Source: a bacterium (GTDB taxonomy: Bacteria; Bacillota; Clostridia; Christensenellales; Aristaeellaceae). From it: DNA of 11,548 nucleotides. The notes under the pieces were generated by a model. It had not been told where the DNA came from. It did not search any database and saw only the letters and a list, made by a program, of their open reading frames with translations. Below, piece by piece: positions 2,289 to 11,548 of the stretch. Each line of letters opens with the position of its first letter. Within the stretch, counting starts at the first letter, position 1. The translations under genes were made by a program, and so were the position numbers. The stretch covers positions 1-11,548 of the forward strand of contig CAVIWF010000063.1 of NCBI GenBank assembly GCA_963646285.1, written 5' to 3'.

Positions 2289-2930
2289 ATGAAGATGACC
2301 AAGCGTGCATGGATCATTTGGGGAATTTCTCTGGCAGTTGTGCTCGTGCTGATGGCTGCCATTCCTTTCGTCCGCACGGCAGCGTGGTGGATTGGTGCCG
2401 CTTGCACGGTGGTGATGTTTGGCCTGTGCGCCTTCACGTTCCATCTGGCCTTCCGAAAAGGCGGCGACATCGAAAGCAAGCTCCTTGGCTGGCCCATCTT
2501 CAAGGTGGGTTACACGGCGTTGATTGCCCAGGTGATGGTTGGGGGCATACTCATGGGGATTGCAGCCTTCTGCCCGGCGTGGCCGGCAGTGATTGCGGAG
2601 GTGCTCCTGTTTGCCGCAACAGGCATTTGCCTGACCTTGAAGGAAGCCTCCCGCACGGTGGTGACCCATGGAGAAGCAACCGTGCAGGACAGAACCCAGG
2701 GCTGGAAGGCCATCCGTGCCAAGGCCAACGCCCTGGCAGCATCCAACGGCAATAGGGACATGAAGAAGCTGGCGGAAGAAATCCGCTATGCTGACCCTGC
2801 GCCCACAGAGATGGATGGGAAGATAGCGGAGATGCTGGAGCAAATGACGGGAGAGGTCACGGAACAGAATGTGACGATGGTGAGGCAGATGGTGATGGAG
2901 AGGAAAGAAATGGGGAAGGGGAATAAGTAA
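2289..2930 (+). CDS. Small integral membrane protein (four predicted TM helices plus a charged C-terminal tail of about 90 aa), function unknown
   Basis: ATG 2289 lies 8 nt after GGGAGG (2275-2280) and 3 nt after the gene-1 stop. Four hydrophobic stretches are visible (AWIIWGISLAVVLVLMAAIPFV; WWIGAACTVVMFGLCAFTFHLAF; ALIAQVMVGGILMGIAAF; AVIAEVLLFAATGICLTL), followed by a K/E-rich tail. It may be a YdjH-like partner of the SPFH protein; that link is inference only. Confidence 0.75.
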   Translation: MKMTKRAWIIWGISLAVVLVLMAAIPFVRTAAWWIGAACTVVMFGLCAFTFHLAFRKGGDIESKLLGWPIFKVGYTALIAQVMVGGILMGIAAFCPAWPAVIAEVLLFAATGICLTLKEASRTVVTHGEATVQDRTQGWKAIRAKANALAASNGNRDMKKLAEEIRYADPAPTEMDGKIAEMLEQMTGEVTEQNVTMVRQMVMERKEMGKGNK

Positions 2931-2953
2931 AAAAGTGATTGAGGATGAGAAAA

Positions 2954-3637
2954 ATGGTTAGAAATAGCGTAATCCTGTATAAGTATATATCACGCCAATA
3001 CCTGATGGAGACGTTAAGAAACCAACAGTTGTATCTTGACGATGGTTCGAATTTTAATGATCCATTTGAATTGCTGATTGTAAGCAAAAGCGAGACCAAC
3101 GATAGACGAGTACAAGGGTTACATATACTCTGCCTGACAAATAGCTACAGAAAAAAACTGATGTGGTCTTATTATGGAGAGTCACATAAAGGTGTTTGCT
3201 TAACGATTGAAGTACCGAAAAAAATTGTCTACCCTGTATGCTACACTTCAGCGAGAGTGTATGAAAACAGCAATTTGGATGAGATCATTGCACATAGTAA
3301 CATAAATAGGAGGAAAAACACGAACTGCGATTATTCCACATTGAGCACAGAAAAAAAGATTGCTTTCATCAAGGATAAAAAGTGGAAAGACGAGAAAGAA
3401 TACCGTATTGTGCTCGATGGGAATGATGAAAAACTGCTGACGAATGAAGGCGGTAGATGGTTCTTGAAGGTGAAAATAAAGAACGTGTATCTGGGGGCAA
3501 GGTTTGCAGATGATGGGCAATGTACAGCGTCTGCAATTGAAGAAATATGCAAAGAAAAAAGGATAACAGTCAAGTATATGACACTTTCAAGAAGGAACTA
3601 TGGTCTAGACATAGCAAAGGAGCGTAAACTACCATGA
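2954..3637 (+). CDS. DUF2971-family protein
   Basis: The N-terminus 'ILYKYISRQYLMETLRNQQLYLDDGSNFNDPFEL' matches the hallmark DUF2971 start (LYKY…L…FNDPFE), followed by 'YYGESHKGVCL'. The start could instead be ATG 2945 or TTG 2939; 2954 gives the best spacing to GAGGA (2941-2945). The stop TGA 3635-3637 overlaps the ATG of gene 4. The gene is visibly AT-rich compared with its neighbours. Confidence 0.7.
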   Translation: MVRNSVILYKYISRQYLMETLRNQQLYLDDGSNFNDPFELLIVSKSETNDRRVQGLHILCLTNSYRKKLMWSYYGESHKGVCLTIEVPKKIVYPVCYTSARVYENSNLDEIIAHSNINRRKNTNCDYSTLSTEKKIAFIKDKKWKDEKEYRIVLDGNDEKLLTNEGGRWFLKVKIKNVYLGARFADDGQCTASAIEEICKEKRITVKYMTLSRRNYGLDIAKERKLP

Positions 3638-6600
3638 TCATCAAGTGCAAGATGTGCGGTGGAGACATCGAATTCACCCCGGGTGCGACCTACGGAACGT
3701 GCGAATATTGCGGCAGTACGTCCACCATCCCGAAGGCTGAGGACGAAGTGACCTTGAACCGCTACAACCGTGCGAACCATTTTCGCCGGCAGTGCGAATT
3801 TGATAAGGCTGTTGCGGCCTATGAGAAGATTCTCGAGCAGGATGACACGGATGCTGAAGCCCATTGGGGTGCGGTGCTGAGCCGCTATGGCATCGAATAT
3901 GTGGAAGACCCGACAACCAAGAAGCGCATTCCCACTTGCCATCGGCTGCAGGTGGCATCCATTTTGGCGGATGCGGACTATCTGGCTGCTGTCGAGCATG
4001 CACCTGACGAGGAAAGCCGCAGCCTTTATGAAGAACAGGCAGCGCAGATTGCGGACATTCAGAAAGGCATTCTCGCCATTTCTGCAAACGAGAAACCCTA
4101 CGATGTATTCATCTGCTACAAGGAAACGGATGAAAACGGTCAGCGTACCCGTGACTCGCAGTGGGCGCAGGACGTGTACTATGGCCTGACAGATGCAGGC
4201 TACAAGGTGTTCTTCAGCCGGATTACGCTGGAAGATAAGCTCGGCCAGCAATATGAGCCGTACATCTTTGCTGCACTGAATTCCGCAAAGGTGATGGTGG
4301 CCATTGGCAGCAAGGCAGAATACTTCAATGCCGTGTGGGTGAAGAACGAGTGGAGCCGTTACCTTGCCCTTATGGCCAAGGATCGCAAGCGTCTGCTGAT
4401 CCCTTGCTACCGGGATATGGATCCTTATGACCTGCCTGAAGAACTGTCTGCCCTGCAGAGCCAGGACATGAGCAAAATCGGCTTCATGCAGGATCTGCTC
4501 CGTGGTGTGAAGAAGGTGCTGGAAGCAGATAAAAAGAGTGAGCCGGTGAAACAGTCTGCACAGGTTGTCACCGCAGCATCAACAGCGGCGGTTTCTCCCG
4601 GTGTGACCAGCCTTATGGAGCGGGCTTATCTTTTCATGGAAGACGGCAATTTCGCAAGTGCAGAAGAATATCTGGATCGTGTGCTGGACATTGATCCCAA
4701 GTTTGCTTCAGCTTATGTGGCCAAGGTGTGCGTGACCTTCCAGTTGCGCAGAGAAGCTGAACTGGCGGAAACTACTTTCCAGTATGAGGACAATGCCGAT
4801 TGGCGGAAGGCTATGCGCTTTGCCAACCCGCAGCAGAAAGCTGTCTATGAGAACTATGCAGCAAAGGTAAAGGAACGCACAGAGCGTCAGATCCGGGATT
4901 ATTCCTACGATTGTGCCATGGAAATGGCAGTGAACCCCTATGCCAATAAGAACAAACTGGACAAAGAATTATCGTACTATAAGGTCTCCTGCACCCATTC
5001 TGACGGCTGCAGGGCTGACGGCAGCCGCCGAAAGAACAGCCAGATGAACGAGGACGCATTCAGACAGAATTTGAAAAGCAATGAGCCCGGCGATTTGAGT
5101 GAGCAAAACTTCAATACGGCCGCCGCCATGTTCGATGAAATTAAGGATAGCGATGCAGCCGAATGTGCCGGACAATGCCGCACGCTGGCGGAACAGGCAC
5201 GGCAGAAGAAAATCTACAAGGAAGCGGTAGCTGCATCGCAGAGCAACAGGGTACCTGATTTGCGGCAGGCGCAAGTGCTTTTTGCAAGCATTCCGCAGTA
5301 CAAGGATGCTGAGATGCGTGCAAAAAAGACGCAAGAAAAGATTGATAACATTCAGGCAAGCATCTATGCGGAAGCCGTGCAGGCTATGCAGAACGCAAAA
5401 GGAAACAGCTGGGATTGGTTAAATGTTAAGCATAAGCTGAGCAATAGGGTACTGGACAATTACCGTGATGTGGCTGCTTTGCGGATTCAGGCAGAAAAAC
5501 AGTATCATGAGAGCATTGCCAAGGAAGATGAAATGAGGCGCCGGCAGGCGGCCAGGAAAAAGAAGATGACCATCCTCGGCAGCACTGCCGCAGCAGTGGT
5601 AATTGCAATCATCCTGCTGGTAACGCAGGTGATTATCCCGTCTAATAATTATAACCATGCAGTGTCGTTGCGTGCAGCAGAAGATTGGGATGGAGCACGT
5701 GAAGCCTTTGCGTCTGCCGGCGACTACAGCGATGCGACAACGCAAATCAAGGCCACTTACTACGCCGAAGGCGAGGCCAAGCGGGCAGCAGGCGAGTGGA
5801 CTGAAGCCGTGGAAGCTTTCACGAATGCCGGCGACTACAGCGATGCGGCGACGCAAATCAAGGTCATCTACTACGCAGAAGGCGAAGCCAAGCGAGAAGC
5901 AGGCGAGTGGACTGAAGCCGTGGAAGCTTTCAAGAATGCAGGCGACTACAGCGATGCGGCAACGCAAATCAAGGCTACCTATTACGCCGAAGGCGAGGCC
6001 AAGCGGGCAGCAGAAGATTGGGATGAAGCACGTGAAGCCTTTGCGTCTGCCGGTGACTACAGCGATGCGGCAACACAAATCATGGTCACCTACTACGCAG
6101 AAGGCGAAGCCAAGCGAGAAGCAGGCGAGTGGACAGAAGCCGTGGAAGCTTTCACGAATGCAGGCGACTACAGCGATGCGGCAACGCAAATCAAAGAAAC
6201 TGAATATCAGAAAGCGCAGGCTCTGTATGCCTCCGCTGACTATGCAAATGCCTACACCACCTATAAGAGCATTTCTGGGTATAAAGATGTTGACAATCTA
6301 CTGGAAACAGACGAAAATCTAAAAGCAGCACTCGAAGCAAAGTTTACGGTTGGAAACTACGTAGAATTCGGTACCTATCCGCAAACAGCATCCGGCACGG
6401 ATAGCACACCCATCGAGTGGCTGGTGCTGGCGAGAGATGGGAACAAGGCACTGCTGATCAGCCGTTATGGCTTGGATACGCAACCATACAACAAAAAGAA
6501 GACGAATGTCACCTGGGAGGAATGCACGCTGCGCACCTGGTTGAACGGCACATTCATGAACAAAGCCTTTACTGCGAACGAACAGACCGGCATCCTGCTG

Positions 6601-6984
6601 ACAAATGTAGACAACAGCAGCAGTCAAGGATATAGCGGGTGGAGCACGAGCGGCGGAAACAATACCCAGGATAAGATCTTCCTGTTGAGTTATGCGGAAG
6701 CAAATCAATACCTGGATGTCACTTATGATGATAGCAATAACATGAAATCCAGGGTAGCGCCGACAGCGTATGCGAAGAAACAGGGAGCTGTTACATCCGA
6801 CTATGATAAGACAGCAGATGGTGATGAGTCCGGGTGGTGGTGGCTGCGTTCGCCGGGCAAAAAGCTGAGCGCCGCCGCGCGCGTGTACTACGACGGCTCC
6901 CTCAGCAACAACTACTATGTCAACAGTGGCAGTATTTGTGTCCGCCCCGCTTTGTGGGTTGATCTGGAATCTGGCATCTTCTGA
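3634..6984 (+). CDS. Single-pass membrane TIR-domain protein. The N-terminal Zn ribbon, TPR-like region and TIR are cytoplasmic; one TM helix follows; the 37-aa tandem repeats and DUF6273-like C-terminal domain are extracellular.
   Basis: RBS AAGGAG (3617-3622) precedes ATG 3634. Residues 5-27 form a CxxC…CxxC ribbon. Residues 153-290 form a TIR fold: 'KPYDVFICYKETDENG' is the betaA strand and 'AVWVKNEWSRYLALMA' carries the W…E motif, with Glu239 encoded at 4348-4350. Residues 300-640 are TPR-like and Lys/Arg-rich. The only long hydrophobic helix is 'MTILGSTAAAVVIAIILLVTQVII' (about aa 645-668, nt 5566-5637). Then come 4.6 × 37-aa repeats, and a C-terminal domain with 'GTYPQTASGTDSTPIEWLVLA…DKIFLLSYAEANQYL…WWWLRSPG…ICVRPALWVDL' that is typical of DUF6273. 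Confidence 0.9.
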   Translation: MIIKCKMCGGDIEFTPGATYGTCEYCGSTSTIPKAEDEVTLNRYNRANHFRRQCEFDKAVAAYEKILEQDDTDAEAHWGAVLSRYGIEYVEDPTTKKRIPTCHRLQVASILADADYLAAVEHAPDEESRSLYEEQAAQIADIQKGILAISANEKPYDVFICYKETDENGQRTRDSQWAQDVYYGLTDAGYKVFFSRITLEDKLGQQYEPYIFAALNSAKVMVAIGSKAEYFNAVWVKNEWSRYLALMAKDRKRLLIPCYRDMDPYDLPEELSALQSQDMSKIGFMQDLLRGVKKVLEADKKSEPVKQSAQVVTAASTAAVSPGVTSLMERAYLFMEDGNFASAEEYLDRVLDIDPKFASAYVAKVCVTFQLRREAELAETTFQYEDNADWRKAMRFANPQQKAVYENYAAKVKERTERQIRDYSYDCAMEMAVNPYANKNKLDKELSYYKVSCTHSDGCRADGSRRKNSQMNEDAFRQNLKSNEPGDLSEQNFNTAAAMFDEIKDSDAAECAGQCRTLAEQARQKKIYKEAVAASQSNRVPDLRQAQVLFASIPQYKDAEMRAKKTQEKIDNIQASIYAEAVQAMQNAKGNSWDWLNVKHKLSNRVLDNYRDVAALRIQAEKQYHESIAKEDEMRRRQAARKKKMTILGSTAAAVVIAIILLVTQVIIPSNNYNHAVSLRAAEDWDGAREAFASAGDYSDATTQIKATYYAEGEAKRAAGEWTEAVEAFTNAGDYSDAATQIKVIYYAEGEAKREAGEWTEAVEAFKNAGDYSDAATQIKATYYAEGEAKRAAEDWDEAREAFASAGDYSDAATQIMVTYYAEGEAKREAGEWTEAVEAFTNAGDYSDAATQIKETEYQKAQALYASADYANAYTTYKSISGYKDVDNLLETDENLKAALEAKFTVGNYVEFGTYPQTASGTDSTPIEWLVLARDGNKALLISRYGLDTQPYNKKKTNVTWEECTLRTWLNGTFMNKAFTANEQTGILLTNVDNSSSQGYSGWSTSGGNNTQDKIFLLSYAEANQYLDVTYDDSNNMKSRVAPTAYAKKQGAVTSDYDKTADGDESGWWWLRSPGKKLSAAARVYYDGSLSNNYYVNSGSICVRPALWVDLESGIF
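4090..4503 (+). other. TIR domain, predicted NAD+-hydrolase type with the catalytic Glu present, inside gene 4
   Basis: YDVFICY (betaA) and WVKNEW (alphaC 'W…E') motifs were read from the translation. Boundaries are approximate. Confidence 0.75.
5686..6196 (+). repeat. 4.6 near-identical in-frame tandem repeats of 111 bp (37 aa, TPR/Sel1-like 'W.EA.EAF..AGDYSDA.TQIK..YYAEGEAKR.AGE')
   Basis: The repeat-initial TGG codons sit at 5686, 5797, 5908, 6019 and 6130, exactly 111 bp apart. The units come in two flavours: A (WDGAREAFASAG…) and B (WTEAVEAFTNAG…). Their order is A-B-B-A-B(partial), which implies a duplication of a 333-bp A-B-B block. Confidence 0.85.
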
Positions 6985-7203
6985 TTTTTGATCCCGAATC
7001 TTGTGCACTGCATAAAAAGAGGGCAGGGTGGGGTGCAATCTTTGCCGTGCCCAAGTGTATAATCTTTCTCATGGAAGTCCCTCCTGCGTGTTGGCTGTGT
7101 ATGCCTATTCTGCACGCTGGAGGGGTTTCCCTTTTTGCAGAAAAGAGCCGCCCCATACGAGACGACTCCCATCATCCGCAAGGCGCTTCCCGCACCCCGC
7201 CTA

Positions 7204-8631
7204 TCATTCTTCTTCCTTCATCTTCAGCCCGCAGAAGTCGGCCATGGTCTTGACCAGCCCCCGTGCCCGGGCAGAGGTGGGCATTTCGCAGAAGATCCGC
7301 AGCCGGGGTTCCGTGCCAGAGAAGCGGGCAATGAGCCAGCCGTCGGCAAAGCGAACCTTTACCCCGTCCATGTAGCTGACGGAGGTGATCTCCTCGCTGA
7401 ACTGGGGCAGCTTCTTGTCCACCATCAGCAGCTGCTGCAGCCGATCCTTCATGGCCTGGTCGAAGGGCCAGTCAAACTCCAGCATCACCAGGTGACCGTA
7501 CCGCTTGTACAGGTCTTCCACCAGTTCGCTCAGCTTCTTGCCGGTTACGGCCAGCATTTCCACCAGCAGGGCAGCGGCATAAATGCCATCCTTGCCCTGG
7601 ATGTGCCCCCGAACGGTCAGGCCGCCGCTGGATTCGCCGCCGATAACCGCTCCGTGCTCCTCCATGGCGGAAGAAATGTACTTGAAGCCCACCGGCACCT
7701 CGTAGCACTTTTCCCCGTAGGCTTCTGCCACCTTGTCCAGCAGGTGGGTGGTGGCCAGGTTCCGCACGGCGCAGCCGTGCCAGCCCTTGATGCGCAGCAG
7801 ATAGTCGTACAGCAGCACCAGAATCTCATTGGGATGAATGAACCGACCCTTGTCGTCAATAATGCCCAGCCGGTCCGCATCGCCGTCGGTGGCAATGCCG
7901 ATGTCTGCATGATTCTCCTGCACGGCAGCACGGAGAGCGCCCAGAGTTTCCACATTGGGGGCAGGCAGGCGGCCGCCGAACAGGGTGTCGTGCCGCTCGT
8001 GAATCACATCCACATCGCACCGGGCCGTCAGCAGAATGGTTTGCAGGCTGGTGCGGCTTACGCCGTACATGGGGTCAAGGATAATGCGCAGCCCCCGGCT
8101 GCGAATGGCATCCATGTTCACCGCACGGATGATGCTGTCCAGATAAGCGTTCTGGGGATTGATCTCTTCGATCAGCCCGGTTTCAATACCCTTGGCATAG
8201 GGCATGGGATGGAGCTCCTCTTCCTTAATGGCGTTGGCAGCGTCCCCGATTTCGTTGGTGACTTCCTCCACAGCGTCCCGGCCGCCCTTGGTGAACAGCT
8301 TGATGCCGTTGTACAGAGCAGGGTTGTGGCTGGCGGTGACTGCCATGCCGTAATAAAGACCATAATCCTTCACCGTGAACATGATCAGGGGAGTGGGGGC
8401 TTCCCGGTCAATCACCCGGGTGTGAATGCCCTCGCTGGCCATGATTTCGGCAACCCATTCCGTGGCTTCTCTGGAAAGGAAGCGGCGATCATACCCGATA
8501 ACAAACCCCCGGCCGTCGCACTCTTCCGCCTTCATCCGCCGTGCCACAGCCAGTGCCAGCCGCTGAATATTCACACGGATAAAGTCGTCACCAATGATTG
8601 CACGCCATCCGCCGGTACCAAAATGAATCAT
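7204..8631 (-). CDS. Alpha-D-phosphohexomutase (phosphoglucomutase/phosphomannomutase family)
   Basis: All four family motifs are present: 'GMAVTASHNP' (phosphoserine loop), 'ATDGDADRLG' (metal loop), 'IGGESSGG' (sugar loop) and 'RFSGTEPRLR' (phosphate loop). The N-terminus is 'FGTGGWRA'. The RBS GAGGAGG sits about 10 nt upstream of ATG 8631 on the minus strand. The gene runs convergent to gene 4. Confidence 0.9.
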   Translation of the reverse strand: MIHFGTGGWRAIIGDDFIRVNIQRLALAVARRMKAEECDGRGFVIGYDRRFLSREATEWVAEIMASEGIHTRVIDREAPTPLIMFTVKDYGLYYGMAVTASHNPALYNGIKLFTKGGRDAVEEVTNEIGDAANAIKEEELHPMPYAKGIETGLIEEINPQNAYLDSIIRAVNMDAIRSRGLRIILDPMYGVSRTSLQTILLTARCDVDVIHERHDTLFGGRLPAPNVETLGALRAAVQENHADIGIATDGDADRLGIIDDKGRFIHPNEILVLLYDYLLRIKGWHGCAVRNLATTHLLDKVAEAYGEKCYEVPVGFKYISSAMEEHGAVIGGESSGGLTVRGHIQGKDGIYAAALLVEMLAVTGKKLSELVEDLYKRYGHLVMLEFDWPFDQAMKDRLQQLLMVDKKLPQFSEEITSVSYMDGVKVRFADGWLIARFSGTEPRLRIFCEMPTSARARGLVKTMADFCGLKMKEEE

Positions 8632-8777
8632 CTTACATACCTCCTCAGCTTCCCGCCTCAGGCAGGTCGTATCTAATCTCTACACCTATGGAATTCTCCG
8701 TAATTCAGGCTATTCCTTCTTTCTGAAAAAATGTTTCGGAAGTTGTATTATTCTTGTATTAAATATGACTAACGCCC

Positions 8778-8806
8778 TTGCCATCCCGGCGGCATGTTGG
8801 TATACT
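8778..8806 (+). promoter_or_regulatory. Candidate sigma-70 promoter TTGCCA (8778-8783), 17 nt spacer, TGgTATACT (8798-8806) for the MBL-hydrolase gene
   Basis: Good -35/-10 hexamers and spacing. The predicted TSS falls essentially at the RBS, giving a very short leader, so confidence is modest. Confidence 0.3.
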
Positions 8807-8826
8807 ATGCTTGGAGGTGTCGTTTT

Positions 8827-9576
8827 ATGCTGCATCAAATCACTGAGCACTGTTATGCGCTTCCCTTCGATGAACGGACGGATCGCCCTTCCCTGGGATA
8901 CGTGCGGGGAGATCGCTTCACCCTGCTGGTGGATGGGGGCAACAGTCCTGACCATATGGCATTGATGCACCGTGCCCTGGATGAGAAGGGTCTGCCCCGG
9001 GAGCAGCTGGTTGCCGTGACCCACAGCCACTGGGATCATACCTATGGCCTGTGCGCAACGGATGCCCCGGTCATCGCCTGCCGAAAGGCGCAAAAGGCAC
9101 TCCTTGCCATGCAGCACTGGGCATGGACGCCGGAGGATATGCAGCATCGGCTGGATACCCGGGAGGATATTCTCTTCTGCCACGACTTTATCCTGAAGGA
9201 ATACGCTGATCCCACCGCCATTCGGGTTCGTGCTGCGGATATTGTGTTTGATGAATTTCTGGAGCTGGACCTGGGGGGCGTGCATGCCCGGCTCATGCGG
9301 CTGAACAACAGCCACTCCCATGACAGCGTGGTGGTCTTTATCCCGGAGGACGGGGTGGTGTACCTGGGGGACATTGCCTACAAGGATCTGCACCACCAGC
9401 CCCCCTGCTGGCATGCCAACCGCCGGGCAGATTTGATGGGTGCACTGGATCGGCTGGATTTCCAGTGGGCAGTGCCCGGCCACCATGGCACCTGCCAGCG
9501 GGATGCATTCTTCCGGGGCATGGAGGAGGAGTTCGCCCAGGATAAGGCGGCGGGCATTCCTGTGCTGCAAGACTGA
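8827..9576 (+). CDS. MBL-fold metallo-hydrolase
   Basis: ATG 8827 follows GGAGGTG (8813-8819). The metal-binding motif 'THSHWDH' (HxHxDH variant) is present, along with a downstream His ('NNSHSHD') and Asp 'YLGDIAY'. These are typical of metallo-beta-lactamase-fold hydrolases. Confidence 0.8.
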   Translation: MLHQITEHCYALPFDERTDRPSLGYVRGDRFTLLVDGGNSPDHMALMHRALDEKGLPREQLVAVTHSHWDHTYGLCATDAPVIACRKAQKALLAMQHWAWTPEDMQHRLDTREDILFCHDFILKEYADPTAIRVRAADIVFDEFLELDLGGVHARLMRLNNSHSHDSVVVFIPEDGVVYLGDIAYKDLHHQPPCWHANRRADLMGALDRLDFQWAVPGHHGTCQRDAFFRGMEEEFAQDKAAGIPVLQD

Positions 9577-9651
9577 ATCCATCAGTGCAAGGGAGCATTT
9601 TCCCTTGCGCTTTCGTTTATTATGTGGATAGTTTTCGTGGAGGTACGTTTC

Positions 9652-11397
9652 ATGAAACGATGGTATTGCTGCCTTTTTTTGGCAGTGCTTTTCCTGTTGC
9701 CCATGGGGTGCAGGGCGGAAACCGCCATTTACGCCTTTGCTGATGCCTGGCCGGAAGCCCTTGCTTCTGCCGTGGCGGATACCCCCTTGGCTGCCGCCCG
9801 GCCGGTGGAAGGCTACGTGGCTTTCCGGGATGGGGCAACTTCCCACGGGGCAGCCGTTGCCCGGGATGATACCGGGTACCTGCTGGCGGTGTTCCACAGG
9901 GAAGGGGAAAGGTGGCAGGCTGATTATTCCCGGCAGGCCCTTCGGCAGGATGCGCCGCCCCAGATGTGGAATCAGGCCCTTTCCGAGGAGTGGAGCAAGG
10001 CAGACATTGCCGCCTATGATGGATCGGATCAGTTCGATTTGATTTATGCCGATGTGCGGTACACCTGGCAGGCGGAGGGGGATACCTGGCGCCTGACCCG
10101 TGCCCTGCTGCCTGTGGCCAACGTGGTAGTGAATGATCACCAGCTGTACTGGAACGAAGAGACGGTCTTTTATCCCCAGGAAACCACCCTGTCCGGTTTT
10201 GCGGAGGAAACCTTTCCCCGCACCCTGCTGGCAGCCCAGACCAATGCGGCTGCATCCCAGGAACAGGATCCTTCCCGTGGGGTGACCACCGGGGCAGGGG
10301 TGGGCACGGACTTCCCGGTAACCCTGTACGCCGCCCCTTCCAGTGGCAGCACGGTGGTGGGCTACTATGCCGCCGGGGTGGAAGCCCAGGTGCTGGATCA
10401 GGGCAGCGGCTACGTGAAGCTGGAGATAGGTGGCACCTTCTCCGGCTGGACGGAGGAGACCCATTTCCTTGCCGGTGCTTCGGCGGATGGTGCCGCTGAC
10501 CTTGCTGGGGAAATCACCATTCCTTCCCCCTTGAACGGCAAGTATTGTTCCCTGCTGGATGCCCCCAAGGCGGATGCTTCCTCCATTGCCCTGCTGGGGG
10601 TGCTGTTTCAGGTGCGTGTGCTGGGCATTACGGCAGATGGGGCCTACCTGCACGTGGCGCTGGCGGACGGGCAGACAGGGTATTTGCCTGCATCCTCCGT
10701 TTCGGCAGGGGAGGTGTGGATCACCAGTGATGCCCGGGAAAACCGGCTGAACCTGCGTCAATCCCCTTCCACCAAAGCCCAGACCCTGGGGAAGTATTTC
10801 GGCGGCGTGAAGGCTCAGCGGCTGTACGCCCCTCCGGCGGACACGGCGTGGATGCGGGTCAGCATTTACGGCTACACAGGCTGGATGATGAGTTCCTTCC
10901 TGGATACGGATGCATCTTCCGTGCCGGACATGCTGCCCCCTCTGGCAGTGGTGGATCCTGAAAACGACAGCACCCTGAACCTGCGCCTGGAGCCGGATCA
11001 GAAGAGCGACGCTCTTGCCCAGTACCCTTCCGGCACAGTGGTGGAAATTCTGGGGGTGAACAGCAACTGGGCTCATGTGCGGGTGGTGGACGGCAGTACC
11101 GGCTTCATGCTGCTGAAGTATGTGGGGGGCGAGCCTGTGTCCGCCGTGAAGAACGCCTTCCCTCTGGCGCAGGAGACTACCCTGACCGATGCCTTCGGCA
11201 ATGAAAATGTGACCCTGCCTGCCGGAACCGGTGTGGCCTCGGCAGAGGGACGGCTGTGCGCCCAGTGGCGGTACGATATCAGCAGCGGCGGCATGGTTTT
11301 CGCCCTGCCGGAGCAGGTGGAGCTTCACGCCGCAGACGCATGGGGCTATGTGCTGACGGAAAACGCCCCTGACATGTGGGCAATGGATGAAGAGTAA
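9652..11397 (+). CDS. Secreted protein with an N-terminal signal peptide and about four bacterial SH3 (SH3b/SH3_3) domains
   Basis: ATG 9652 follows GGAGGT (9639-9644). 'MKRWYCCLFLAVLFLLPMGCRAE' is a signal peptide; the lipobox is non-canonical. The segments 'LNLRQSPSTKAQTLGKYFGG…WMRVSIYGYTGWM' and 'LNLRLEPDQKSDALAQYPSGTVVEILGVNSNWAHVRV…GFM' are SH3b-like. Confidence 0.8.
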   Translation: MKRWYCCLFLAVLFLLPMGCRAETAIYAFADAWPEALASAVADTPLAAARPVEGYVAFRDGATSHGAAVARDDTGYLLAVFHREGERWQADYSRQALRQDAPPQMWNQALSEEWSKADIAAYDGSDQFDLIYADVRYTWQAEGDTWRLTRALLPVANVVVNDHQLYWNEETVFYPQETTLSGFAEETFPRTLLAAQTNAAASQEQDPSRGVTTGAGVGTDFPVTLYAAPSSGSTVVGYYAAGVEAQVLDQGSGYVKLEIGGTFSGWTEETHFLAGASADGAADLAGEITIPSPLNGKYCSLLDAPKADASSIALLGVLFQVRVLGITADGAYLHVALADGQTGYLPASSVSAGEVWITSDARENRLNLRQSPSTKAQTLGKYFGGVKAQRLYAPPADTAWMRVSIYGYTGWMMSSFLDTDASSVPDMLPPLAVVDPENDSTLNLRLEPDQKSDALAQYPSGTVVEILGVNSNWAHVRVVDGSTGFMLLKYVGGEPVSAVKNAFPLAQETTLTDAFGNENVTLPAGTGVASAEGRLCAQWRYDISSGGMVFALPEQVELHAADAWGYVLTENAPDMWAMDEE

Positions 11398-11418
11398 AGA
11401 AGAATAAAGACAATGAAA

Positions 11419-11454
11419 AGGGCTGATGTGAAGAATCAATTTCACATCAGCCCT
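11419..11454. terminator. Perfect 14-bp stem hairpin (agggctgatgtgaa / ttcacatcagccct, 8-nt loop) 22 nt after the stop of the SH3b gene
   Basis: The stem was read directly from the sequence. The T-rich run lies on the minus-strand side (11396-11418 reads aagaagaataaagacaatgaaaa on +). So it looks like an intrinsic terminator oriented for leftward transcription, or a bidirectional one lacking a + strand U-tract. Confidence 0.4.
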
Positions 11455-11461
11455 CAGGGCA

Positions 11462-11490
11462 TCGACAAAGTGGCCTTGCCACTTTGTCGA
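11462..11490. other. Second perfect hairpin (tcgacaaagtggc / gccactttgtcga, 13 bp, 3-nt loop), followed by (CACT)3 and further GAACGG/CCGTTC stems up to the window edge
   Basis: Read directly. It forms a dense structured region of unknown function, possibly a REP-like element, an ncRNA, or stacked terminators. Confidence 0.4.
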
Positions 11491-11548
11491 GTTGTGCACT
11501 CACTCACTGGTCGAACGGTTTCACCGTTCTCCCGGCCGTTCGTTCGTG

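Follow-up and report, generated by a model that had tools for sequence, protein, structure and literature searches.

The window analyzed here is positions 1–11,548 of contig CAVIWF010000063.1 (assembly GCA_963646285.1), 11,548 nucleotides (nt) from a bacterium of the Aristaeellaceae (Clostridia). It carries four tightly packed genes, all on the + strand. Gene 3, the subject of this work, encodes a DUF2971 protein predicted to be an ADP-ribosyltransferase (ART). It is preceded by genes for a cytosolic SPFH protein (gene 1) and for a membrane protein with about four transmembrane (TM) helices (gene 2, the 4-TM protein), and is followed by a gene for a single-pass membrane TIR protein (gene 4). 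A preliminary description of the sequence had singled out gene 3 as an AT-rich gene coupled to the TIR gene. The features of the locus are as follows.

323–351, + strand: promoter-like site (TTGATT-17-TATACT, extended TG) upstream of the putative operon; a consensus match only.
546–2285, + strand: gene 1, cytosolic SPFH protein (Pfam PF13421, Band_7_1, E = 5.9e-41).
2289–2930, + strand: gene 2, 213 amino acids (aa); hydropathy analysis indicates about four TM helices and a soluble tail at the C-terminus.
2931–2953, + strand: intergenic spacer of 23 nt between genes 2 and 3, read from the sequence; the upstream edge of the AT-rich block.
2954–3637, + strand: gene 3, 227-aa DUF2971 protein, predicted DarT/Tpt1-like ADP-ribosyltransferase, with its ExE motif at 3392–3400.
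3617–3637, + strand: coupling junction, with AAGGAG (3617–3622) inside gene 3 and the ATGA stop/start overlap (3634–3637).
3634–6984, + strand: gene 4, 1116-aa single-pass membrane TIR protein (Pfam TIR_2, DUF6273, and TPR matches).

The gene 3 protein matches the Pfam profile of DUF2971 (PF11185) with 32.8 bits, above the curated cutoff of 22 (E = 1.9e-7). The match spans residues 70–152 and the whole 89-position profile, confirming the family named in the preliminary description. Two models of PDC-S31, a candidate single-gene system of PADLOC, also match (PDLC04990, E = 1.1e-24; PDLC04991, E = 2.6e-24, residues 7–222), as does phrog_1762, a PHROGs family without assigned function. The predicted structure (pLDDT 90.8) has an ADP-ribosyltransferase fold that is closest to Tpt1 and DarT, and its structural neighbors are DarT, Tpt1, Rhs ART toxins, and scabin. 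Searched with a profile of the DUF2971 alignment, the PDB sequences give no match even at E values up to 10; only fold comparison led to structural relatives. Judged by profile match, predicted fold, and motif, gene 3 is a member of DUF2971/PDC-S31.

Residues N35, D36, L61, W71, Y74, G80, C82, K140, E147, E149, R151, and G181 are invariant in an alignment of 37 sequences. E147-x-E149 forms the ExE motif, and Y74 is the presumed motif II tyrosine of DUF2971. In a published survey (PMC12522546), DUF2971 is grouped with the DarT/AbiGi-like ARTs, its H-Y-E pattern being modified and its ExE conserved. We are highly confident that the gene 3 product has an ART fold with an intact active site, and NAD+-dependent ADP-ribosyltransferase activity is predicted. 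A decaying pseudogene was considered and rejected: the open reading frame (ORF) is intact and keeps the conserved catalytic residues, and the ratio of nonsynonymous to synonymous divergence (dN/dS) is 0.16.

One DUF2971 protein has been characterized. Aristaios, from Lactococcus, confers abortive-infection-type phage resistance as one gene alone (PMC11381338) and blocks phage transcription (PMC13064643). A defense role is moderately probable for gene 3 as well; nucleic acid as the target of its ADP-ribosylation is a tentative assignment, at somewhat less than even odds. A tblastn search of phage and plasmid collections returns only distant proteobacterial DUF2971 genes, with no close relative among them. 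Look-ups by exact sequence find no record of the DUF2971 or the TIR protein of the window, and no NCBIfam model matches any of genes 1–4.

Related loci (L numbers) were gathered by exact-protein look-ups, a scan of one genome per species, and a metagenome scan. All were annotated by tblastn with the window's proteins, and a TIR gene was counted if it lay within 10 kb of the DUF2971 gene on the same strand. The DUF2971 subfamily of gene 3 is represented among them by 18 lineages with mutual identity below 90%. A zinc-ribbon–TPR–TIR module of the window type accompanies the DUF2971 gene in 13 of the 18, always on the same strand, and the recurrent adjacency that the preliminary description proposed as a check is thereby borne out. 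Twelve lineages have flanks of at least 5 kb, and the module is present in 10 of them. One of the remaining two, L003, has the SPFH gene, the 4-TM gene, and a TIR-less paralogue of gene 4 with an RCC1 domain; the other, L005–L008, is without the TIR module and also without the SPFH and 4-TM genes. The SPFH gene is followed by a gene 2 homologue in 10 lineages and occurs alone in one more (L023). The link to the TIR gene thus stands, but the partner is wider than the TIR gene originally named: DUF2971 is linked to the whole SPFH/4-TM/TIR locus.

None of the 116 distant DUF2971 loci whose flanks extend to at least 5 kb carries a homologue of the TIR module, of the SPFH gene, or of gene 2, in a tblastn comparison that detects the window's TIR family and not unrelated TIR domains. 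Pairwise identities of DUF2971 proteins correlate with those of the nearest TIR modules (Mantel r = 0.75, p = 0.003, n = 9 points that are not independent); the correlation with SPFH identities is weak (r = 0.28, p = 0.06, n = 11). The DUF2971–TIR linkage is real and specific to this subfamily.

The TIR gene lies immediately downstream of DUF2971 in eight lineages. Together with the L003 paralogue, these give nine junctions, with stop-to-start distances of −4, +2, +14, +8, +5, −14, +55, +5, and −20 nt. The distance is −20 to +14 nt at eight of the nine, and tight coupling is therefore recurrent across lineages. In the window, the stop codon of gene 3 overlaps the start codon of gene 4 in the sequence ATGA at 3634–3637, exactly as first described. 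This form does not extend beyond the window lineage: the L002 junction reads TAA, two nucleotides (CC), and ATG. The AAGGAG sequence lies 11 nt 5′ of the overlap. Co-expression of DUF2971 and TIR, also put forward earlier, is plausible, with distances of 23 nt from gene 2 to gene 3 and −4 nt from gene 3 to gene 4. A terminator scan finds no terminator between genes 2, 3, and 4, a result that cannot prove operon structure. Genes 1–4, gene 3 included, are with good probability co-expressed as one operon.

Two observations concern the L005–L008 lineage. A Ser/Thr kinase gene and an FHA gene lie upstream of DUF2971. In L005 (2689–8897), for example, the DUF2971 gene comes after the genes of a protein of 1134 aa and of a membrane protein of 222 aa, the latter AT-rich, and precedes SHOCT and Prok-RING genes.

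The GC content of gene 3 is 0.382 (0.395, 0.329, and 0.421 at the first, second, and third codon positions), compared with 0.523–0.617 for the six other genes of the window, whose third-position GC (GC3) is 0.597–0.752. The over-use of AGA, AGG, AAA, and ATA reported earlier is confirmed by counts. AGA and AGG make up 12/16 arginine codons in gene 3 versus 20/172 in its neighbors, AAA makes up 16/24 lysine codons versus 33/168, and ATA makes up 7/17 isoleucine codons versus 4/149. Gene 3 has the sole negative codon-preference index in the window (−0.31, versus +0.07 to +0.30 for the other genes). Phe, Tyr, Met, Ile, Asn, and Lys (FYMINK) account for 36% of its residues versus 17–27% in the others. 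When the gene 3 protein is re-encoded with host synonymous frequencies, the expected GC is 0.488 (sd 0.010), compared with the observed 0.382 (z = −10.5). Because of this prediction, the deficit can be split into about 0.08 from amino-acid composition and about 0.11 from synonymous choice. The explanation that the AT-richness follows from amino-acid composition alone is rejected, given the z-score for synonymous codons.

The borders are sharp. GC3 falls from 0.81 in the final 48 nt of gene 2 to 0.44 in the first 48 nt of gene 3, and rises from 0.31 in the final 48 nt of gene 3 to 0.81 in the first 48 nt of gene 4. Therefore, the AT-rich block consists of exactly the spacer and gene 3 (2931–3633), clearly distinct from its flanks. 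The preliminary description had placed the first 30 nt of the TIR gene inside the compositional transition. This does not hold, as GC3 is host-like from the start of that gene. The modest raw GC of its 5′ end comes from a conserved peptide, MIIKCKM, encoded with GC-ending codons. Gene 4 overall (GC 0.523, codon index 0.065) is the least host-like among the GC-rich genes of the window.

A low GC content accompanies DUF2971 genes elsewhere. All 18 subfamily lineages have a DUF2971 gene with a lower GC than its flanks, the difference being −0.016 to −0.216 over a host GC of 0.29–0.56. At distant DUF2971 loci (metagenomes and viral contigs), 94% of 134 genes are below their flanks; the mean difference is −0.083, and gene GC regresses on flank GC with a slope of 0.73. 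AT-richness is a stable trait of the DUF2971 family, not a sign of recent arrival. It stems from a protein rich in Lys, Asn, Ile, and Tyr combined with AT-biased synonymous codons. Since the GC deficit is general across the family, GC cannot be used to date the acquisition. The deficit of 20 points in gene 3 is a case in point, having persisted through a synonymous divergence (dS) of about 1. An AT-rich island in itself is ordinary for defense genes.

Contigs L001 and L002 share the arrangement of the window, and their DUF2971 proteins are 96% (L001) and 67% (L002) identical to that of gene 3. Gene 3 occupies the same position just upstream of the TIR gene, hereafter the slot, and is AT-rich in both lineages (GC 0.38 in the window and 0.35 in L002). 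The comparison of the window with L002 by the NG86 method gives the following values.

Gene 1 (SPFH): identity 92%, dS 1.06, dN/dS 0.038.
Gene 2 (4-TM): identity 79%, dS 0.79, dN/dS 0.156.
Gene 3 (DUF2971): identity 67%, dS 1.29, dN/dS 0.163.
Gene 4 N-terminus (TIR): identity 96.5%, dS 0.87, dN/dS 0.017.

Because the dS of gene 3 is similar to that of its flanks and the slot is the same in L002, the gene would already have been in the slot in the common ancestor. Residence since before the split between the window and L002 is very probable on these alignments. One point weighs against this dating: dS values near 1 are close to saturation, and NG86 is biased by skewed composition. Residence is therefore a consistency argument and not a precise date. 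Gene 3 is under purifying but relaxed selection, and its protein evolves several times faster than its neighbors. The more recent horizontal origin once proposed for gene 3 is contradicted by the shared slot, by its dS (1.29, versus 0.79–1.06 for the flanks), and by the family-wide AT-richness. In L001, the TIR gene is split into two ORF calls (2530–2769 and 2763–4814; 79 and 684 aa), the reading frame changing near residue 40. The cause is either an assembly error or a recent inactivating frameshift, with DUF2971 staying intact.

The TIR module family has more than 4127 clusters at 90% identity, and its members are 63–90% identical across Clostridia. The DUF2971 subfamily has 61 clusters. DUF2971 is therefore a rare addition to a conserved SPFH/4-TM/TIR unit, and more than 98% of TIR-module loci are without it. 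Empty slots are seen in L014, L021, L035, and L038. In L035, a distance of 61 nt separates the gene of a 209-aa membrane protein from the TIR gene after it, which has a module 92% identical to that of the window. L038 and L039 carry two TIR genes without DUF2971. One, TIR449, has a module 85% identical to that of the window. The other, TIR626, with a module 60% identical to the window's, forms a unit with a Band_7_1 gene and a gene for a 214-aa 4-TM protein; the slot is empty, and the junction is 3 nt. L040 is a sister of L038 in which an unrelated gene of 277 aa fills the slot behind the 4-TM gene; its GC is 0.36 among genes of 0.60–0.63, and only a 31-aa remnant of the start of a TIR gene follows it. 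Comparing L040 (8253–9461) with L038 (12911–15439) and L039 indicates that the slot content has turned over and that the TIR gene was lost with it.

Other AT-rich genes in or beside slots encode SIR2_2/AbiH-like proteins (three cases, two with SIR2 or ThsA-type PADLOC matches), one HEPN pEK499_p136 protein, and unknown ORFs of 179–277 aa. One such ORF without a named family matches phrog_18591. Small AT-rich genes lie between or before TIR genes at L009 3146–4048, L041 7060–7956, L010 2924–3970, L014 6139–6708, and L035 3886–5140. The comparison of loci suggests a picture in which a conserved core of the SPFH gene, the 4-TM gene, and one to three TIR genes has hot-spot junctions that collect AT-rich effector-like genes. 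The AT-richness of slot genes may persist through steady replacement from a low-GC gene pool, may reflect selection for poor codons that throttle a toxic enzyme, or may reflect silencing.

Genes of other kinds adjoin some of these loci. A type I restriction-modification system (L038 28–6750) lies next to the TIR/SPFH locus of L038; two AT-rich ORFs (220 and 187 aa; GC 0.35–0.39) lie between its hsdR and hsdS genes, like slot genes. Rep and FtsK genes follow the L009 locus.

Gene 1 encodes about five N-terminal CxxC zinc-ribbon pairs and no TM segment. At its C-terminus are three tandem zinc-ribbon units (2058–2281), encoded by 65-nt repeats that are 77% identical (repeat family D2). Gene 2 falls into no family of Pfam, NCBIfam, or PADLOC; its homologues come after the SPFH gene in L002, L003, L009, L010, L014, L016, L018, L021, L024, L038, and L041.

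Gene 4 matches TIR_2 (E = 1.6e-14) and DUF6273 (E = 6.5e-31) in addition to TPR. Its predicted cytoplasmic part runs from a zinc-ribbon through TPR and TIR (nt 4105–4476) to TPR, with a module of about 295 residues. The catalytic-type Glu239 (nt 4348–4350) lies in the sequence WVKNEW, which aligns to WCLMEL of the plant L6 TIR. W235, V236, N238, E239, and W240 are invariant in 28 homologues, among about 100 invariant columns. A single TM helix (residues ~645–668, nt 5566–5637) is preceded by RRRQAARKKK, a positive-inside signal, and the N-terminus is therefore predicted to be cytoplasmic. The predicted extracellular part has five 37-aa tandem repeats (5670–6224) and the DUF6273 domain (6442–6963). 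DUF6273 has a C-type-lectin-like fold and occurs in phage receptor-binding proteins and as a target of diversity-generating retroelements (DGRs; PMC10743442). A search for the template and variable repeats of a DGR acting on the DUF6273 domain of gene 4 found no such pair. In paralogues elsewhere, RCC1/WD40-like or RHS/YD domains take the place of DUF6273. The topology is that of a Toll-like receptor in reverse order, and the conservation of the TIR module across Clostridia is unusual for a defense gene. In L038, the ORF of a TIR module (7885–9234) has a GC of 0.61, and the next ORF (9503–11287), which encodes the extracellular DUF6273 part, a GC of 0.46. The sensor half of TIR proteins may be exchanged separately.

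Gene 3 resembles several known systems without coinciding with any of them. Like gene 3, Aristaios (Lactococcus plasmid pUCCL641_199) has a DUF2971 domain, a predicted ART fold, no neighboring antitoxin, and a defense-type context. However, Aristaios is a plasmid-borne protein of 316 aa that is sufficient alone, whereas gene 3 encodes 227 aa, is chromosomal, lies in a putative operon, and belongs to a subfamily tied to SPFH/TIR loci. DarT of DarTG, a thymidine ADP-ribosyltransferase acting on single-stranded DNA, is only 8–14% identical to gene 3, and the motifs differ, with DUF2971 having the modified H-Y-E pattern and ExE. No Macro domain of the DarG antitoxin type is found in the genes of the window or in the listed neighbors of related loci; gene 3 is therefore not part of a DarTG system.

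In Thoeris, the TIR protein ThsB produces a signal, and the effector (ThsA, ThsC, and others) consumes NAD+ or acts in another way. Loci of the window type resemble Thoeris in having a TIR protein with a conserved catalytic Glu, often several TIR paralogues, and small effector-like genes adjoining. In addition, SIR2-like proteins of sister loci have weak similarity to the ThsA profile (E = 1e-6 for the slot gene of L009). However, the TIR protein of the window is large and single-pass with extracellular domains, the core is SPFH and 4-TM, and the DUF2971 protein, unlike Thoeris effectors, has no recognized signal-binding domain. The PADLOC models of ThsA and ThsB do not match genes 1–4, and the locus is therefore not a recognized Thoeris type.

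A further likeness is to SamGHI (YdjGHI) of Bacillus subtilis, in which the cytosolic SPFH protein SamI (YdjI) is recruited by the membrane proteins SamG and SamH and serves envelope-stress sensing. The window likewise has a cytosolic Band_7_1 SPFH protein without a TM segment beside a small multi-pass membrane protein, which could bring it to the membrane. Unlike in SamGHI, gene 2 has no homology to anything annotated, the SPFH protein has many zinc ribbons, and there is a TIR link, which is undescribed for SamGHI. No PspA-family gene, corresponding to the operon partner pspA of SamGHI, is found in the window or in the listed related loci.

We favor, with a probability of roughly 60%, the reading that gene 3 encodes a functional NAD+-dependent ADP-ribosyltransferase that is co-transcribed and translationally coupled with the TIR gene and acts as an accessory effector of the SPFH/TIR locus. 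Gene 3 would occupy a hot-spot slot just upstream of the TIR gene, within a conserved membrane-associated locus of Clostridia. The locus would comprise the cytosolic SPFH protein, its 4-TM partner, and one or more TIR proteins, each with a zinc-ribbon–TPR–TIR module in the cytoplasm, a single TM helix, and an extracellular domain that varies. Gene 3 would be transcribed with genes 1, 2, and 4, and its translation would be tightly coupled to that of the TIR gene. Triggered by an infecting phage, or by an envelope signal that the TIR/SPFH module senses, the enzyme would ADP-ribosylate a nucleic-acid or protein target and halt phage or host macromolecular synthesis. The enzymatic activity, the defense role, the dependence on TIR/SPFH, and the target are inferred. 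Functional dependence of gene 3 on TIR/SPFH, as opposed to co-location, is slightly favored.

Several points weigh against this reading. Aristaios works alone, and the tblastn search of the phage and plasmid collections detects no similarity of gene 3 to a lactococcal plasmid gene. No recognizable signal-sensing domain or antitoxin has been found. The position of the TIR gene varies, with DUF2971 upstream of it in eight lineages and downstream in five, and the L005–L008 lineage has neither TIR nor SPFH within 7 kb. The statistical support also has its bounds in the family-restricted tblastn comparison and in the nine dependent points of the Mantel test.

Some of these points, namely the sufficiency of Aristaios on its own (PMC11381338), the variable position relative to TIR, and the L005 lineage, would be expected if gene 3 were an autonomous, Aristaios-like abortive-infection ART that is independent of TIR/SPFH and moves among homologous loci. 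The conserved TIR 5′ ends, whose DNA is nearly identical across loci, and the SPFH/4-TM genes would serve as recombination anchors, and junctions before TIR genes would therefore act as a hot spot for defense genes. The listing of PDC-S31 in PADLOC as a single-gene candidate, the unrelated AT-rich genes in the slot elsewhere (the 277-aa gene of L040, SIR2-like, and HEPN), and the restriction-modification system adjoining L038 fit as well. An autonomous mobile gene, however, would be expected in many contexts, whereas this subfamily, at 39–67% identity, keeps to one type of locus throughout several clostridial families (13 of 18 lineages). The rest of DUF2971 is never in such loci (0/116), tight stop/start junctions with the downstream gene recur, and gene 3 co-diverges with the adjacent TIR module. 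We consider independence of this kind, although the leading rival, unlikely.

Far less credible is the model of the preliminary description, in which DUF2971 and TIR were acquired together, recently, as a foreign cassette in a resident SPFH operon. The ATGA overlap and the recurrent adjacency of the two families speak for it, as do the somewhat lower GC (0.523) and less host-like codons of gene 4 and the co-divergence of DUF2971 and the adjacent TIR module at deep timescales. At the timescale tested, it is contradicted by the equal dS of gene 3 and its flanks. Precisely at the start codon of TIR, GC3 rises abruptly from 0.31 to 0.81, into host-like TIR codons, and the TIR N-terminus is 96.5% identical to that of L002 (dN/dS 0.017) versus 67% for DUF2971. 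Moreover, the TIR modules 85–92% identical to that of the window occur without DUF2971 (L035 and L038), and SPFH/4-TM/TIR is a widespread unit to which DUF2971 is rarely added (61 versus more than 4127 clusters). Arrival as one cassette is very improbable.

The ART might also modify the TIR or the SPFH protein, or else a nucleotide made by TIR, thereby tuning or restraining TIR without killing. Both enzymes use NAD+ or ADP-ribose chemistry, tight translational coupling favors matched stoichiometry, no antitoxin is present for a supposedly toxic enzyme, and selection on gene 3 is purifying but relaxed. Yet more than 98% of TIR-module loci do without DUF2971, the structural neighbors of the protein are nucleic-acid-modifying toxins (DarT, Tpt1, Rhs ART toxins, and scabin), and the same slot carries the classic killer domains SIR2 and HEPN. 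A regulatory role is accordingly a poor prospect. A more novel reading, which we regard as speculative, is a widespread, undescribed immune-type locus of Clostridia in which SPFH and 4-TM organize single-pass TIR receptors of Toll-like-receptor topology that drive swappable AT-rich slot effectors. If so, extracellular lectin-like, RCC1, or RHS sensors would detect phage or envelope events at the cell surface. The slot effectors would be the DUF2971 ADP-ribosyltransferase, SIR2-like NADases, and HEPN RNases. Signaling would be outside-in and Thoeris-like, and the DUF2971 enzyme would be a new effector class.

Through this linkage, a known family of effectors gains a genomic partnership that is new and apparently obligate. 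DUF2971 has only recently been recognized as ART-like, with Aristaios as its validated anti-phage member. That one subfamily stays with a single TIR/SPFH membrane locus of gut Clostridia yields a testable hypothesis, that the ART works with or downstream of the TIR protein. The analysis also brings to light the conserved SPFH/4-TM/TIR-receptor locus, with more than 4000 protein clusters. We found no description of this locus or of the DUF2971–TIR link in the open-access literature, and nothing relevant on PDC-S31 or on SPFH with TIR; the search covered open access only and is not proof of novelty. Both the subfamily-specific linkage and the receptor-like TIR locus merit experiment.

The remaining observations concern the layout of the window. 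The DNA upstream of gene 1 (1–545) is AT-richer, with a GC of 0.41–0.44 over 150–600. Promoter-like sites in the region occur at chance level, and the site at 323–351 is the sole candidate upstream of gene 1. A divergent helix-turn-helix (HTH) regulator, present upstream of gene 1 homologues in L003, L009, and L014, was not found in the window. An 82-aa ORF on the − strand (93–341) was considered for this role and rejected; it contains no HTH domain and is not similar to the regulator of L014. Rfam and tRNA scans give no match. The long ORFs at 540–2843 (−), 7135–8676 (+), and 8710–11499 (−), of 767, 513, and 929 aa, were rejected as genes; they run antisense to the real genes and are stop-poor shadow frames of the kind typical of GC-rich coding DNA.

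The spacer before gene 3 contains GAGGA at 2941–2945, at a distance of nine nucleotides from the ATG at 2954. An additional A in L001 shifts the upstream ATG (2945) out of frame, and 2954 is therefore favored as the start of gene 3. The spacer sequence differs in L002, where the final codons of gene 2 are identical. On the 3′ side of gene 4 are unrelated housekeeping-type genes for phosphoglucomutase (− strand), a metallo-beta-lactamase-fold protein, and an SH3-repeat protein.

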